A program made the translations under genes and the position numbers. Positions 709 to 63,021 of a stretch of DNA of 64,000 nucleotides are shown piece by piece. The notes beneath the pieces are model-generated. The model was not told the DNA's origin. It searched no databases and worked only from the letters and a program-made list of their open reading frames with translations. The DNA comes from a virus (taxonomy: Duplodnaviria > Caudoviricetes), in the IMG/VR virus record IMGVR_UViG_2799112742_000018, positions 50,065 to 114,064 of that record; one strand, written 5' to 3'. Positions within the stretch are counted from its first letter, which is position 1. Each line of letters starts with the position of its first letter.

Positions 709-1037
709 CTTTTGTATTTACTTTCTAAAATTATTTCATTCTTTTTCATATTTCTTGTGGCATAGATACGTCTGTCAATCCCCTGTTCTCTGTCAAAGTC
801 AAGCAAGGTCAGAGTTCCCAGGTCATCACAATCCATGATGTATTCCTTGGTATCCACTTCACGCCAATACATACCCTTTGCCGCTATAATCTTGCCGCTA
901 CACGCCTTAGCAATCATCTGATGAGAAACACCAGTTGTCTTTGCTGCCGTATAGTAGGAGCTGAACATTCCCACCAATTTAAGATTTGAGTCAAAGACTA
1001 TAACGCTTTTGATATGGTCATTCTTCTTTTTGCTCAT
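705..1037 (-). CDS. NUMOD1-like HTH DNA-binding protein
   Basis: F.S...AAKTTGVS...I.KAC.GK...AKG.YWR pattern; no nuclease domain. Confidence 0.65.
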
Positions 1038-1482
1038 GACGAGATTTGATTATTTCCTGAAGAGCCTCATCTGGTAGTTGAAGCGATGCCATTTGCATAA
1101 CAAAGCCTTCACTAAACGCTATACCATTGGTAAGGCAAGTGATTACCATGTTGTTGAAATAGAAGCATGTTTCAGGGTTTACATACTGAATGAATATCAA
1201 TGCCAACGAAACATCTATCAGTAGATGCTTGTCTGTATTTACATAGAATAGTTCAGAGCTTTTCTTTTCTGTATTCTTGCAAATAGCATCAATATATCTA
1301 TAACACTGAGTGTAGAACGCTGAGTATGGTGGTAGTTCTGCATCGACAGCTTCACAATATACCGTAGCATCGAAGACTATCTTTTCAGGATTGATATTCC
1401 CGACAAAAATATCTGGGATGTCAGGAAATATATTCTCCTGACATTCCACTATTTTTGTAAGTTGATTAAGCTTAGGCTTCAT
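1018..1482 (-). CDS. Hypothetical protein, possibly KilA-N-like
   Basis: Overlapping operon member; FDAT.Y and LALIFIQYVNP motifs. Confidence 0.5.
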   Translation of the reverse strand: MKPKLNQLTKIVECQENIFPDIPDIFVGNINPEKIVFDATVYCEAVDAELPPYSAFYTQCYRYIDAICKNTEKKSSELFYVNTDKHLLIDVSLALIFIQYVNPETCFYFNNMVITCLTNGIAFSEGFVMQMASLQLPDEALQEIIKSRHEQKEE

Positions 1483-2008
1483 ATCGTTCTACTATTGATG
1501 TATAAGACTCAGGGAACAGATAGATATTTTCTGCTGGATCAAGCTTAGAATCTACAATGACAAAATCAGTCATAGAACGTCTAAGATAGTTTCTTAGGGT
1601 AACAATGGCTGAATTGATAGACTCTTCAGCAACAACAAATGCCTGAGAGGTGTACTTTTCCTTGCCAGTCTTCTCATCAATGTGTACGAACTTAACTTTG
1701 ATAACAAAGAAACCATCGTTGTCCTTACTGAAATAGCACTCTACTCTTCCTTCCAGATCGTTCCCATACGTATCTTCGCATGTAACCTTGTTATCTATGA
1801 AATCCTTGACCTTGTACTTTGTCTTGATGATTTCATACTCAGGTAATCCAAACTGGCCCCATCCATTCTGTTCTACGATAGCATAGACAAGTTTTTCTGC
1901 ATCTGTGTAGGTTTCACACTCAGCAAAGGCCTCAGTCTTGGCCTTCTTTACCTCGCCATTATCATTCTGATATTTGTAGGCGAACTTCAATCTAAAAATT
2001 GTACTCAT
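1472..2008 (-). CDS. DUF4494-like protein with two tandem domains
   Basis: Repeated F..K..Y/F.....G..K....F......TDAE/SA pattern. Confidence 0.65.
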   Translation of the reverse strand: MSTIFRLKFAYKYQNDNGEVKKAKTEAFAECETYTDAEKLVYAIVEQNGWGQFGLPEYEIIKTKYKVKDFIDNKVTCEDTYGNDLEGRVECYFSKDNDGFFVIKVKFVHIDEKTGKEKYTSQAFVVAEESINSAIVTLRNYLRRSMTDFVIVDSKLDPAENIYLFPESYTSIVERYEA

Positions 2009-2030
2009 ATTAAATAATTTGTTTTGCTGT

Positions 2031-2044
2031 TTTAAGGATAATAG
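2031..2044 (-). promoter_or_regulatory. Putative phage late promoter CTATTATCCTTAAA
   Basis: Copy of the recurrent CTATTA-N5-AAA motif, 22 nt before ATG 2008. Confidence 0.6.
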
Positions 2045-2207
2045 GGTTTATGCACATCATCTTGACTGTTAAAGAAAAGTTAAAATCTATAATTGTCTTA
2101 TATACAGGTGTTTATATTTGAAGAAAAATTTCATGTAATAGGTGAAATATCTTTTAAGATTGGAATTATATAAGTTGGTGCTGGATGGATGTAAAAAGAA
2201 ATAAGAC

Positions 2208-2221
2208 CTATTATTAAGAAA
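2208..2221 (+). promoter_or_regulatory. Putative phage late promoter CTATTATTAAGAAA
   Basis: Identical 14-mer also at 11568, 18282 and 61418, each about 10-11 nt before an ATG. Confidence 0.8.
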
Positions 2222-2232
2222 ATTACATAGTA

Positions 2233-3501
2233 ATGAAAAAGAGAAATTCAGTAGAATCGGGAGGTCAGTACTTTACAAGCAATGACCTTGTATCATACTA
2301 CAACGAGACCAAGAAGACCATTCAGGACTACGTTGATGAAATAAGAAGGCATTGTGGATACAAGACAGTCGTATCTCAAACTGCCGATGGAACTATCCTT
2401 GATGATCGAGGAAGACTGATGGATCTTTATGATTCATGTCTCATGCAGGATGCACATCTCAGGTCTTGTATGGAAACATTGTATTCATACATTACTGGTG
2501 AAAGATATGCTCTCGGCACTATTGACGAAAGGGGTGAATTTGTCATTGATGTTGAAGAAACAAAGAAAGTACAGACACTTGATTTTGAGAAATTCATAAT
2601 CGGTATTCAGGATGCTACGGCATACGGATATACATTGTTCGATATTTCCTCAAAAAGAAACCCCGCTACTGGACTTCCAGATTATATAGGTACGGTTGAG
2701 CGCCGTAATGTTCTTCCAAGTCAGAGACGAGTAGTCAAGACACAGGGACAATGGATGCCTGGTTGGGATCTTGATAGTGAGAGATATAAACACAACTATA
2801 TCCTTATTGATACTTGTGGACTCGGTATGTTTGCCACCAGTACACCTCTTGTATTGGCTAAGAAATATACCGTTTCAAACTGGGTAAATTTCAGCCATAC
2901 ATACGGACAGCCTATCATTCATGGCAAGACAACCGCAACCGATAATGAGAGTAGAAAGAGATTGGCGCAGAGTATTGTAAATGCAGCCCAGAATAAGGTT
3001 GTTGTTACTGGTACTGATGATGCTATTGACATCAAGACATTTACAATGTCAAACTCTGAGAAAATATTCCAGAGCCTTATTGAGAATTATGCTAATGCCG
3101 AGATTTCAAACCTTATTCTTGGCTCTGAGTCTATGGCTGGCGCTACCCAGTCTTATGTGGGATCAACTAAGGCGCATGAGGATATTCTTAGGAGTAGAGT
3201 ACGTAGGTATCGCCGTTTTATTGAGCAGACTATCAATGAAAGAATACTTCCAGAATTGGTTTACTGGGGTTTCATCAAGCCTGGCCTTGTATTCAAGTAT
3301 TCTAAGCAGCTTGATATGTCTGTTGAGGCAAAAACCGAGGTATTCAAAATGCTTACCGCAGCTTATGATGTGCCAAAGGAAACTATCAGAAATGAGTTTG
3401 GCGTTGAGGTAGGAGAGCAGATGAACCATAAGCAGCAGTTGGTAAGTAAAACCACTGGTAACGCAAATGCAAGGGTAAATTTTCTGAGGGGAAAGCAATA
3501 G
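2233..3501 (+). CDS. Portal protein (Mu gp29/DUF935-like)
   Basis: LMDLYD...DAHL, YGYTL, W..F...YG.P, N.EIS.LILG and HE motifs; first gene of the head operon. Confidence 0.85.
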   Translation: MKKRNSVESGGQYFTSNDLVSYYNETKKTIQDYVDEIRRHCGYKTVVSQTADGTILDDRGRLMDLYDSCLMQDAHLRSCMETLYSYITGERYALGTIDERGEFVIDVEETKKVQTLDFEKFIIGIQDATAYGYTLFDISSKRNPATGLPDYIGTVERRNVLPSQRRVVKTQGQWMPGWDLDSERYKHNYILIDTCGLGMFATSTPLVLAKKYTVSNWVNFSHTYGQPIIHGKTTATDNESRKRLAQSIVNAAQNKVVVTGTDDAIDIKTFTMSNSEKIFQSLIENYANAEISNLILGSESMAGATQSYVGSTKAHEDILRSRVRRYRRFIEQTINERILPELVYWGFIKPGLVFKYSKQLDMSVEAKTEVFKMLTAAYDVPKETIRNEFGVEVGEQMNHKQQLVSKTTGNANARVNFLRGKQ

Positions 3502-3532
3502 GCGGTACTGTTTTCCCAGACATAAAAGCCGC
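3477..3532 (+). other. Putative -1 ribosomal frameshift signal (A_AAT_TTT plus H-type pseudoknot)
   Basis: In-frame XXXYYYZ heptamer at 3477-3483; stem 3489-3497/3509-3517; loop pairing 3502-3506/3528-3532; the -1 frame is open 3462-4385. Confidence 0.7.
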
Positions 3533-3533
3533 A

Positions 3534-4385
3534 TTGTCCGAAGATGAGGATGAGGAGAATAAGAAGAAAATGCTTGATCTTTTTATTGCCCTTATCAGAT
3601 CTATGGGCAATGCAGATTCCCGCGAGGAAGCCCTGTATCAATTAGCTGAATTGCGTACTGAGATTGCTGTGAATAGAGCTTTTGATGGATTTAATATTGA
3701 ACCTGAAGATGCTCTTAGCTTGATACGTGAAATGGATGTTACCAAGCTTTCAGAAGAAGATATTGAAAAGCGTAATGTTCTTATTGCGGCTATCAGTAAT
3801 CTTATTGAATTTGCAACTTGTGAGGAATATCATCTTTATAAAGATGTAGAAGAGCAAGGCAAGGATTATACCGATGAGGACTGGATAGATGAAAATCTTG
3901 ACGATCCTCTTTCGCCATTCCTCAATATTAACCATAAGTACAACGAGGTATATGCCGATGTGGAGGATTCTGATATAGAATACTCTATGGCTATGGCTTG
4001 GCTATGGGTAGTTGAGTGGGATAAGCATACTACTCTTACCTATATGACACAGAATGATGATCGTGTACGTCCCTGGCACTATGCGCTTCAGGGGTTTACG
4101 GCAAGGAGAGACGAGTTCCCAGAATGGATGATACCACCTATTGAATGGGCTTGTCGTTGCTATCTTGTTGCTGAAACTGGAGTAAGTGCGAAGCTTGATC
4201 TTAATGTGATGGCAAAACAAAAGACACCTAAGAAACCAAAGGAACTTGATGGTATTTTTAAGGAGTCTGTTTGTAAGTGTGGGCGTATTTTCTCTGATGA
4301 GCATCCTTATTTTCAGATTGATGATAAGGATGAAGATATGCTGAAGGGGTTTGTTGAACGTTTAAGGCAGAAGTATTATGGCTAA
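3534..4385 (+). CDS. Minor head morphogenesis protein (Mu gpF/SPP1 gp7 family); start uncertain
   Basis: Y.T..DDRVRPWH..L.G, PP..W.CRC and HPYF motifs. Confidence 0.88.
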   Translation: MSEDEDEENKKKMLDLFIALIRSMGNADSREEALYQLAELRTEIAVNRAFDGFNIEPEDALSLIREMDVTKLSEEDIEKRNVLIAAISNLIEFATCEEYHLYKDVEEQGKDYTDEDWIDENLDDPLSPFLNINHKYNEVYADVEDSDIEYSMAMAWLWVVEWDKHTTLTYMTQNDDRVRPWHYALQGFTARRDEFPEWMIPPIEWACRCYLVAETGVSAKLDLNVMAKQKTPKKPKELDGIFKESVCKCGRIFSDEHPYFQIDDKDEDMLKGFVERLRQKYYG

Positions 4386-5986: not shown

Positions 5987-7249
5987 ATGAAACAAGAAGA
6001 TTTGAAATTCGTAAAAGGAAGCGTTGAGCGTGGTAAGCCAGCTACAATATGCTTCTTCTCTGAGGTAGAGAAATGGAATGTCCAGGACTTTATCTGGGAG
6101 TTCAATTGGATTAAGGATCGCCAGCCTTCTGAGATTAAGGTTCTCATTAATTCTGTTGGCGGTAACTGCGTTGATGGTATCAGTGCTTTCTCTACTATCA
6201 TCAATTGTGAAATTCCTGTTACCTGTGTCATCGAGGGTATTGCGGCTTCTATGGCTTCTATTATCTGGGCTGCTGGTAACAAGTGTCTCATGCGTGATTA
6301 TGCTCTTCTTATGATCCATAATCCCTGGTCTGAGAAATCAGATGATCCAGAAACACAGCGCACAATCGAGAATTTCACAACCCAGTTGAAGACTATTTAT
6401 ACCAAGCGATTCAAGATGGATGAGGAAAAAATTACAGCCATTATGAATGGTGAGGATAATTATGATGGAACATTCTTTACTGCTCAACAGGCAGTGGAGG
6501 CTGGCTTCATTACTGCTGACCAAATCATTGAGACTGGGAGTGTTAGCGCATCTATTGCAGCTAAGCTTGAAGGTGTCAGCAATTCTTCCGCTATCGTTTC
6601 TATCATGCAGGGTGCGATTGATCAAAATCTAAAAAGTATTGAGAGTCGCACTATTATGAAGAAAGAAGATAATTTGTTAAACAATAAAACAAACAACATG
6701 AATCAGGAATTTCTTACAGTAGCCGCACTTCTCGGTTTGACAGGTGAAAAGGCTAATGAGAGCGCAGTATCTGCAAAGATCCAGGATCTTGTTAAGGCTT
6801 CTAAGGAGCTTGAGACTCTGAAGGCTGAGAAGAAGGCTCTGGATGAAAAGGTATCTGCCCTCAACACTGAGCTTGCTGGTAGCAAGGCTTCAGTAGAGAA
6901 TCTTACTAAGAATCTTAACGATGCTCAGGCAGCTCTTGACAAGTACAAGCAGGCTGAAGAGGCAGCACGTACAGCTTCTATCAACGCTATGATTGATGAT
7001 GCTATCGCTGCTGGTAAGATCGGCAAGGATGCAAAGGACACATGGGTAGCAATGGCTGAGGAAAACTTTGACCTCGCAAAGCAGACTCTTGACTCTATCC
7101 CAGTACGTGAGGACATCTCTGCTCAGATTGCACAGGATCCAACTAACAAACAGAAGACTGCCGAGCAGATGGCCGATGAAGAGGCTAAGGTAAAGGCACA
7201 GGTTGACGAGGTTGTTGGTAAGGATTTTGCGTTCCGTTCTCTCAAGTAA
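5987..7249 (+). CDS. ClpP-type prohead protease with C-terminal scaffold domain
   Basis: INSVGG, GIAASMAS, LMIHNP, TFFTAQQAVEAGF; coiled-coil C-terminal half; lies before the major capsid gene. Confidence 0.92.
   Translation: MKQEDLKFVKGSVERGKPATICFFSEVEKWNVQDFIWEFNWIKDRQPSEIKVLINSVGGNCVDGISAFSTIINCEIPVTCVIEGIAASMASIIWAAGNKCLMRDYALLMIHNPWSEKSDDPETQRTIENFTTQLKTIYTKRFKMDEEKITAIMNGEDNYDGTFFTAQQAVEAGFITADQIIETGSVSASIAAKLEGVSNSSAIVSIMQGAIDQNLKSIESRTIMKKEDNLLNNKTNNMNQEFLTVAALLGLTGEKANESAVSAKIQDLVKASKELETLKAEKKALDEKVSALNTELAGSKASVENLTKNLNDAQAALDKYKQAEEAARTASINAMIDDAIAAGKIGKDAKDTWVAMAEENFDLAKQTLDSIPVREDISAQIAQDPTNKQKTAEQMADEEAKVKAQVDEVVGKDFAFRSLK
6698..7249 (+). CDS. Nested in-frame scaffold protein (183 aa)
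   Basis: Internal late-promoter copy at 6651-6664 and an A-rich leader (AACAATAAAACAAACAAC) before in-frame ATG 6698. Confidence 0.65.
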   Translation: MNQEFLTVAALLGLTGEKANESAVSAKIQDLVKASKELETLKAEKKALDEKVSALNTELAGSKASVENLTKNLNDAQAALDKYKQAEEAARTASINAMIDDAIAAGKIGKDAKDTWVAMAEENFDLAKQTLDSIPVREDISAQIAQDPTNKQKTAEQMADEEAKVKAQVDEVVGKDFAFRSLK

Positions 7250-49791: not shown

Positions 49792-50301
49792 ATGGCACAG
49801 GAAATTACAGAAGAATTTATCAAGTCCTTGACTAAGTGGCAGATATTAGCCTTGGACTGCGCTCAACACACTGGCTTTTATTCATGTAAGGAATACGGAA
49901 CAGTCTATTTCCCAAACACCGATAAGGCACCTAAAAAATTGGGTGAGGATTATGAACAACATAAGGCTTTCAGGGATTGGGTAATTGAGATGGTAAAAAA
50001 GTACAATTTTAAGTTGATTGTTGCCGAAGACGTTAATGTCGGGAACCAGTTTACAGCACTTAGAAAACTATCTCAGTTCCAGGGGGTTTTGTATGAGGTT
50101 TGTGCAACCTTGAAAATACCTCTCATAGTATGCAATGTAGCCAGTATCAAGCGTTTTGCCGCAGGAAAGGGCAATGCTACTAAACAGGAAATGATAGAGG
50201 CTGCTAAACGGCGATGGAAGTTTGACTGTGAAAATGATGACAATCTTGCTGATGCGATGCACATCTTCCATTACATAACTAAACGCTACAACATTCAATA
50301 A
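49792..50301 (+). CDS. ruvC: RuvC-like Holliday junction resolvase
   Basis: ILALD...TG, IVAE, K....GKGNA.K.EM, DN.ADA. Confidence 0.85.
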   Translation: MAQEITEEFIKSLTKWQILALDCAQHTGFYSCKEYGTVYFPNTDKAPKKLGEDYEQHKAFRDWVIEMVKKYNFKLIVAEDVNVGNQFTALRKLSQFQGVLYEVCATLKIPLIVCNVASIKRFAAGKGNATKQEMIEAAKRRWKFDCENDDNLADAMHIFHYITKRYNIQ

Positions 50302-62827: not shown

Positions 62828-62899
62828 GGTGGATTCATCTAAGGGTTAGGATTCAAGATTCTCAATCTTGCCATAGGGGTTCGAATCCCCTATCCACTA
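62828..62899 (+). tRNA. tRNA-Glu(CTC), copy 1
   Basis: Acceptor GGTGGAT/ATCCACT, anticodon arm CAAGA-TTCTCAA-TCTTG, T arm AGGGG-TTCGAAT-CCCCT; no encoded CCA. Confidence 0.95.
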
Positions 62900-62932
62900 C
62901 AAGAAAGGGGCTGAGACAGTACAAATTAATCC

Positions 62933-63004
62933 GGTGGATTCATCTAAGGGTTAGGATTCAAGATTCTCAATCTTGCCATAGGGGTTCGAATCCCCTATCC
63001 ACTA
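62933..63004 (+). tRNA. tRNA-Glu(CTC), copy 2 (identical)
   Basis: Exact repeat of copy 1, including trailing CAAGAAA. Confidence 0.95.
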
Positions 63005-63021
63005 CAAGAAAATGAATATAT

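Follow-up and report, generated by a model that had tools for sequence, protein, structure and literature searches.

Programmed −1 ribosomal frameshifts that are conserved throughout a lineage are few, and the classic one, in lambda and in most other long-tailed phages, is that of the tail assembly chaperone genes G and GT (Levin et al., 1993; Xu, Hendrix and Duda, 2004, as cited in PMC8008677 and PMC7911831). Frameshifts are also described in capsid genes, i.e., gene 10A/10B of T7 and the major head protein gene of Lactobacillus phage A2 (Garcia et al., 2004, as cited in PMC10885494). In the head of SPP1 the portal protein gp6 binds gp7, a member of the MuF family, non-covalently and with one to two gp7 molecules per capsid (Droge, 2000; Stiege, 2003, as summarized in PMC5576092), and a MuF gene is located directly downstream of the portal gene in the head and packaging module (PMC5576092). 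The same two gene families meet in the 64,000-nt stretch of phage DNA analysed here (hereafter the window), which corresponds to positions 50,065–114,064 of a 114,064-nt IMG/VR provirus record. To judge from its sequence and that of its relatives, it is highly probable that the portal-MuF junction of the window is a programmed −1 ribosomal frameshift site that fuses the portal to the MuF protein. A search of open-access papers and preprints turned up the adjacency of portal and MuF genes, MuF-toxin fusions and many phage frameshifts, and no description of a portal-MuF frameshift; this agrees with an initial annotation of the window, made from the sequence alone, which stated that the known phage frameshifts are not found at this junction. 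The junction thus very probably represents a canonical −1 cassette in a gene pair, and in a role, for which no published description was found, and one that is conserved across many gut phages and prophages.

The junction is composed of the following features:

2233–3501, + strand: portal gene, zero frame, 422 aa, Mu-type, with the stop codon TAG at 3499–3501 (open reading frame list, Pfam, PHROG 113 portal)
3477–3483, + strand: slippery heptamer A_AAT_TTT, in frame with the portal (sequence and alignment of 63 distinct junctions)
3484–3488, + strand: 5-nt spacer between heptamer and stem
3489–3517, + strand: predicted stimulatory hairpin, arms 3489–3497 and 3509–3517, loop 3498–3508 (ViennaRNA minimum-free-energy fold)
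3483–4385, + strand: MuF/gp7-like minor head protein, read in the −1 frame, stop codon at 4383–4385 (Pfam, tblastn, AlphaFold)

The final codons of the portal gene read AGG GTA AAT TTT CTG AGG GGA AAG CAA TAG, and A_AAT_TTT is therefore an in-frame X_XXY_YYZ heptamer just ahead of the portal stop, as the initial annotation had pointed out. As A_AAU_UUU it falls into the H_HH.U_UU.Y class, which Sharma et al. (PMC4066793) rank with the −1 motifs that work most efficiently in E. coli. The MuF reading frame is offset by −1 relative to the portal and is open from 3462 to 4385, with TTG at 3534 and ATG at 3570 as its only early start codons, and a slip at the heptamer is predicted to give a trans-frame product of 717 aa with the junction ...ARVNF|SEGKAIGGTVFPDIK; the open frame, the two starts and the length of about 717 aa had all been read correctly before. 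So had the stem that follows the heptamer after 5 nt, in which GGGAAAGCA (3489–3497) pairs with TGTTTTCCC (3509–3517) to give 9 bp including one G-U, closed by an 11-nt loop with the portal stop codon at its 5' end. This hairpin is the minimum-free-energy fold of 3484–3540 (−14.4 kcal/mol), and its 5-nt spacing lies in the range of canonical −1 signals (about 5–9 nt).

The identity of the portal is clear from a full-length match to Portal_Mu (PF06074; E 9.1e-51, 173.6 bits with a cut-off of 23.9, profile positions 1–336 of 336). The match of the −1 product to Phage_Mu_F (PF04233; E 5.6e-7) is marginal at 30.7 bits against a curated cut-off of 29.6 and covers profile positions 65–111 only. The same profile scores higher in more distant relatives, i.e., 65.9 bits in Winogradskyella phage Peternella_1 and 53.9 bits in a human faecal phage scaffold (both described below), and the homologue of the window's MuF in Bacteroides phage BS-TP1 carries the annotation MuF domain protein.

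Compared with the described systems, the predicted cassette resembles that of G/GT in that an X_XXY_YYZ heptamer is found near the end of the upstream virion-assembly gene, that the downstream reading frame has no conserved start of its own and would be made only as a C-terminal extension, and that the site is conserved over highly diverged phages and may fix the ratio of short to long product. It differs in that it concerns a head pair, portal and MuF, in that A_AAT_TTT is used instead of G_GGA_AAG and other heptamers, in the near-universal presence of a strong covarying downstream hairpin, and in that MuF is encoded by an independent gene, or fused constitutively to the portal, in some relatives. 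As in T7 10A/10B and phage A2, ribosomes shifting to −1 shortly before the end of a head gene would give a minor, C-terminally extended form that enters the virion, but the extensions in T7 and A2 are short extra domains whereas MuF is a separate conserved family encoded by a stand-alone gene in other phages. The layout of heptamer, spacer of about 5 nt and stem-loop or possible H-type pseudoknot is that of IS3/IS911 OrfAB and other bacterial cassettes (PMC4066793), and as with OrfAB a fusion protein with a new function would be made at a set fraction, although the products here are virion structural proteins and not a transposase. A Shine-Dalgarno-like stimulator upstream of the heptamer was not noticed, although no search was aimed at one. 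With SPP1 gp6/gp7 the window shares the two families and the order portal then MuF. In SPP1, however, gp7 is a low-copy internal head protein on the portal, with its own start and a non-covalent link, whereas a peptide bond made through recoding is predicted for the window. A portal-MuF frameshift would thus add a second structural-gene case, in the head, to the lineage-wide conserved frameshifts, and would link two families that are known to interact.

Relatives of the portal were collected from IMG/VR (50 loci, 51–60% identity), from one genome per prokaryotic species (71 loci, nearly all from Bacteroidales, including Bacteroides, Alistipes, Prevotella/Segatella, Muribaculaceae, Dysgonomonas, and Butyricimonas) and from GenBank phages (BS-TP1 and two human faecal scaffolds). 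An in-frame AAATTTT near the portal stop was found together with a MuF frame at 92 loci, which represent 63 distinct 60-nt junctions, without exception with MuF at −1. The complete set of in-frame AAATTTT, −1 MuF and strong hairpin was present in 38 of the 50 IMG/VR relatives, in 50 of 69 junctions from bacterial genomes and in the cultured phage BS-TP1. The portals of signal-bearing loci are 48–60% identical to that of the window, and the heptamer is located 9–30 nt, usually 21 nt, ahead of the portal stop. In the 60-nt alignment of the 63 junctions the seven bases of the heptamer and one C of the 3' arm are invariant and no other column is. The codon ahead of AAT has A as its third base in all 63 junctions, compared to a background of 20% A-ending codons in the portal, and it encodes nine different residues (V, A, E, K, S, T, G, Q, and L). 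Similarly, the site retains AAT and TTT even in portal genes that elsewhere use them for as little as 4% of Asn and 0% of Phe, in a family whose portal GC content ranges from 35% to 59%. The invariance of the heptamer and of the A ahead of it, despite varied residues and codon usage, argues for selection on the nucleotides and not on the protein.

The portal tree, which is unrooted, has three major clades, and each of them includes loci in the frameshift state. The portal of the window belongs to a 17-member clade (support 100) in which all members carry the signal, and the lineages without it are nested inside one major clade, which suggests several losses. The check for conservation proposed along with the initial annotation thus found heptamer, −1 offset and downstream hairpin kept in 63 distinct junctions.

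The hairpin in the relatives starts 0–6 nt past the heptamer, most commonly after 5 nt (32 of 63 junctions), and has a median stability of −16.6 kcal/mol. Its sequence varies by lineage, and the first 7 nt of its 5' arm take 39 different forms in the 63 junctions. RNAalifold applied to a MAFFT alignment of the 63 junctions returned only three pairs because the alignment is not structure-aware and stem lengths differ; folds of the individual sequences and a local rank test were used instead, the latter comparing each junction with 42-nt segments taken across portal and MuF (673 in the window and about 670 per relative). By this measure the hairpin was among the most stable 1% of local segments in 52 of the 63 junctions and among the most stable 5% in 59.

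About one fifth of the relatives lack the signal. In the best-sampled signal-less lineage MuF occupies the +1 frame and begins at an ATG of its own, 7 nt past the portal stop, and the portal still ends in ...N-F-L-K-Q/E with Asn-Phe spelled AAC TTC or AAC TTT; the spelling AAT TTC occurs in one related signal-less sub-lineage (L092). Five signal-less relatives that were folded have no hairpin, and their downstream 60 nt reach only −2.4 to −3.5 kcal/mol. As this lineage is without heptamer and hairpin and has its own ATG, the heptamer, the hairpin and the missing MuF start come and go together.

Three sets of individual junctions deserve mention. One relative (L026, around 3448–3475) has G_AAT_TTT in place of the heptamer; its MuF is still read at −1, with 306 aa open, and its hairpin is GGGAAC/GTTCCC. 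This variant may allow slippage of the A-site tRNA only, or may be a weakened site. In another (L013, 4287–4727) portal and junction are identical to those of six other contigs and the MuF frame ends after 146 codons, which reflects either a damaged copy or an assembly error. Finally, the 60-nt junction (around 4275–4334) is identical at all bases in L098, L100, L103, and L124, and one downstream base differs in L099 and in the faecal scaffold MT835494 (L053). The five genomes with this type of junction belong to Bacteroides propionicigenes, B. ndongoniae, Phocaeicola coprophilus, an Alistipes sp., and B. gallinarum, and the first start codon of any kind in their MuF frame is at residue 84. 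The spread over species is consistent with the broad distribution published for Hankyphage (PMC6199706), to which these loci may belong.

The explanation that survives best besides frameshifting is that portal and MuF are two ordinary genes, with MuF started independently and with heptamer and hairpin either incidental or serving mRNA stability or translational coupling. Two start codons are available for this:

3534–3572, + strand: possible independent MuF starts, TTG at 3534 (residue 20 from the slip site) and ATG at 3570 (residue 32), not conserved

Both codons are present, ATG 3570 is preceded by an A-rich stretch of the kind that suits initiation in Bacteroidota, TTG 3534 is ahead of the structured domain, and the statistics of the single sequence are unremarkable. 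We nevertheless regard independent initiation as unlikely to be the whole explanation, although it could operate alongside frameshifting. When the −1 reading was compared with BS-TP1 by tblastn, homology began at residue 6 of the open frame, i.e., at the heptamer, and extended over the last part of the portal as annotated in BS-TP1. When 36 diverse loci were aligned, a variable linker of about 20–30 residues was seen to precede a conserved helix (EY..L..F..L), which is also present in independently started MuF proteins. The first ATG is located past the start of this helix in 29 of the 36 loci and past its invariant Phe in 26. In 17 of the loci there is no ATG, GTG or TTG at all ahead of the helix, and yet the frame is open and residues are conserved; in 10 there is none ahead of the invariant Phe. 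Reading upstream, 22 of the 36 loci have a stop in the −1 frame no more than 30 nt from the heptamer, and in three the frame closes exactly at the heptamer. In the AlphaFold model of the window's −1 product (pLDDT 88, pTM 0.87) residues 1–19 after the slip site form a disordered linker (pLDDT below 50) and the first long helix spans residues 22–41, so that ATG 3570 falls inside a confidently predicted helix. Moreover, neither start is conserved, and independent initiation leaves unexplained both the covarying hairpin and the invariance of seven bases together with the A of a variable preceding codon, as well as the loss of heptamer and hairpin in lineages with their own ATG. As for another role of the signal, neither a terminator nor a promoter was predicted in 3300–3750.

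Several observations nonetheless count against a programmed frameshift. First, the window on its own is unremarkable: its DNA is AT-rich and AAATTTT occurs 24 times compared to 27.4 expected, i.e., at chance level, the hairpin has a z-score of only −0.99 compared to dinucleotide shuffles, and it is among the weakest of the family (−12.2 kcal/mol), falling within the most stable 2.7% of the 673 local segments. The case must therefore rest on the comparison with relatives. Second, TTG 3534, at residue 20, is located just before the helix of residues 22–41, which makes independent initiation possible in the window. Third, the motif rules established in E. coli may not apply to the ribosomes and tRNAs of Bacteroidales. 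Fourth, constitutive in-frame fusions in relatives (see below) indicate that a low copy number of MuF is not obligatory. Finally, slippage at A_AAT_TTT and its rate are inferred from the sequence, and the open-access literature searched yielded no proteomic or reporter data on the trans-frame product.

If the junction functions as a programmed frameshift site, most ribosomes would stop at TAG 3499 and release the 422-aa portal. A fraction would pause while tRNA-Asn occupies the P site (AAT) and tRNA-Phe the A site (TTT), because the hairpin, whose stem would be placed at the mRNA entrance 5 nt downstream while the heptamer is decoded, is proposed to resist unwinding. Both tRNAs would then re-pair one base back, on AAA and TTT, and translation would continue in the −1 frame through a flexible linker of about 20 residues into the MuF/gp7-like domain, giving the 717-aa portal-MuF chain. 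It is conceivable that fusion and plain portal chains co-assemble into the dodecamer, with the frameshift rate setting the number of MuF domains on its inner (C-terminal) side. The C-termini of portal proteins point into the capsid interior, so that MuF, tethered to this end by a flexible linker, would come to lie within the head at the portal, where, by analogy, it may act as SPP1 gp7 does. Such a mechanism would offer a concrete answer to the low copy number of a portal-bound minor head protein.

A different slip site can be proposed in the window, used instead of A_AAT_TTT or besides it, although we consider this somewhat less likely still than independent initiation:

3489–3495, + strand: second heptamer G_GGA_AAG, in frame, inside the 5' arm of the hairpin and 9 nt before the portal stop, specific to the window

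This heptamer, missed in the initial annotation, is the lambda G/GT motif and belongs to the V_VV.A_AA.R class that is efficient in E. coli (PMC4066793). A slip here would enter the same −1 frame and the product would differ by two residues (junction NFLRGK|AIGG compared to NF|SEGKAIGG). The heptamer is however not conserved among the relatives, where a similar GGGAAAA occurs only in L112, and since it is part of the 5' arm the hairpin cannot stimulate a slip there; the sole possible downstream structure, 3501–3505 with 3528–3532, is weak. It is hardly credible that the break in frame instead reflects a sequencing or assembly error in the run A3T4, an ancestral in-frame fusion that recently suffered a frameshift mutation, or RNA polymerase slippage: in-frame fusions do exist in relatives and homopolymer runs are error-prone, but the same break at the same seven bases in 63 distinct junctions from independent metagenomes, isolates and a cultured phage excludes an artefact or pseudogene, neither mutation nor error would preserve a covarying hairpin, and transcriptional slippage needs runs of about nine or more, for which three A followed by four T are far too few.

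The initial annotation had further placed an H-type pseudoknot at the junction, formed by pairing between the hairpin loop and a downstream sequence:

3501–3532, + strand: candidate pseudoknot stem 2, loop GGCGGT (3501–3506) with GCCGC (3528–3532), connecting loop 3518–3527

The complementarity between GCGGT (3502–3506) and GCCGC (3528–3532) is present as stated, a 5-bp duplex of −9.4 kcal/mol, and with connecting loops of 3, 2, and 10 nt the geometry is plausible. For the pseudoknot itself the support is confined to pooled statistics. A test of the longest complementary run gave P 0.12 for the window alone and 0.036 when pooled. With one representative for each of 22 sequence clusters, the duplex energy between loop and downstream sequence was −10.06 kcal/mol, compared to −8.39 ± 0.52 after shuffling of the downstream sequence (P 0.002) and −8.49 ± 0.51 when the partners were permuted (0 of 500). 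The complementary pentamers to octamers differ between lineages, and the pairing is weak in four of them. As the loop defined in this test took in inner stem bases in several representatives, the pseudoknot is plausible but unproven, with moderate support at the level of the family.

Portal and MuF are also joined without recoding. Three in-frame portal-MuF fusions of 729–763 aa with a Portal_Mu match (P0001–P0003) were found in a search restricted to longer proteins, and all three match the MuF of the window over 93–96% of its length; in P0002 the Phage_Mu_F match is 25.7 bits and below the cut-off of 29.6. One of the three is encoded at 3001–5262 of L133, in a module with the gene order of the window. 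No convincing slip site was found at the junctions of these fusions, and their linker is long and very acidic. A fourth in-frame protein with both Portal_Mu and Phage_Mu_F, of 848 aa, is encoded at 965–3511 of the 41.9-kb human faecal phage scaffold MT835523 (L134). The genes of some actinobacteriophages are likewise annotated as 'portal and MuF-like fusion protein'. To judge from these sequences a covalent link between portal and MuF is biologically viable. The end product of the constitutive fusions is the same as that predicted for the window, i.e., Portal_Mu, linker and Phage_Mu_F in one chain, but every subunit would carry MuF unless another recoding event intervenes.

In the protein of MT835523 the junction between the two domains (near 2251–2260) contains a run of A, at which a −1 slip would terminate after 5–6 codons; the arrangement is a dnaX-like mirror image of that in the window. 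The same protein has a weak C-terminal match to a CdiA_C-like toxin (E 1e-4, below cut-off).

Another arrangement is seen in Winogradskyella phage Peternella_1 (L052, MT732475, Winoviridae) and seven IMG/VR relatives, in which the Portal_Mu gene ends in ten A (within 2200–2340 in L052 and at about 3740–3800 in L125–L132). Phage_Mu_F is here in the −1 frame, with the first ATG at codon 159–190 and with conserved residues upstream of any start; in the GenBank record of Peternella_1 the portal is named 'head morphogenesis protein'. This clade would make a portal-MuF fusion by way of another slippery motif, through ribosomal or transcriptional slippage. It looks unrelated to the family of the window and appears to follow the same logic by another route.

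It is tempting to go one step further, although what follows is tentative and somewhat less likely than not. In the Bacteroidales family MuF may often be made by frameshifting only, in which case the rate of slippage would set the share of the 12 portal subunits that bear MuF inside the capsid, a covalent control of stoichiometry at the level of translation, and would break the 12-fold symmetry, perhaps placing MuF, and the toxin cargo found on it in some relatives, for exit through the portal channel together with the DNA, and other Bacteroidota phages may reach the same outcome by the A10 run (Winoviridae) or by in-frame fusion with a terminating slip. If this is true, asymmetric portals are predicted in abundant phages and prophages of the human gut. 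As BS-TP1 grows in culture on Bacteroides salyersiae, the prediction is directly testable there.

The junction also has consequences for gene annotation, as gene-calling programs break such loci in two and place the start of MuF arbitrarily inside its frame, e.g., in the record of BS-TP1 portal and MuF are two separate genes and MuF is annotated from 114 nt past the portal stop. Many of the Bacteroidales MuF proteins in databases are therefore probably truncated at the N-terminus.

In the window the portal (2233–3501) and MuF (3483–4385) are followed by two small open reading frames and by a gene for a ClpP-type protease-scaffold protein (5987–7249), which is the gene order of a Mu-like head module; the order of portal, MuF and protease-scaffold recurs in BS-TP1 and L133. 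The product of 5987–7249 has 420 aa, with a ClpP-type protease domain in its N-terminal part and a Mu-like prophage I (scaffold-like) region in its C-terminal part, and is the protease-scaffold of the head module that also holds portal and MuF. No solved structure was matched, either by a sequence search with portal and MuF or by Foldseek with the confident MuF model (best E 0.31). Reading of TAG as a sense codon, which is reassigned in some gut phages, was considered and discarded, as the zero frame would gain only seven codons up to TAA at 3523, with no effect on the junction. There is no gene for tRNA-Asn or tRNA-Phe in the window, so the phage is not an obvious supplier of the tRNAs that decode the slip site. 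Two tRNA-Glu(CTC) genes are found in tandem at 62828–62900 and 62933–63005.

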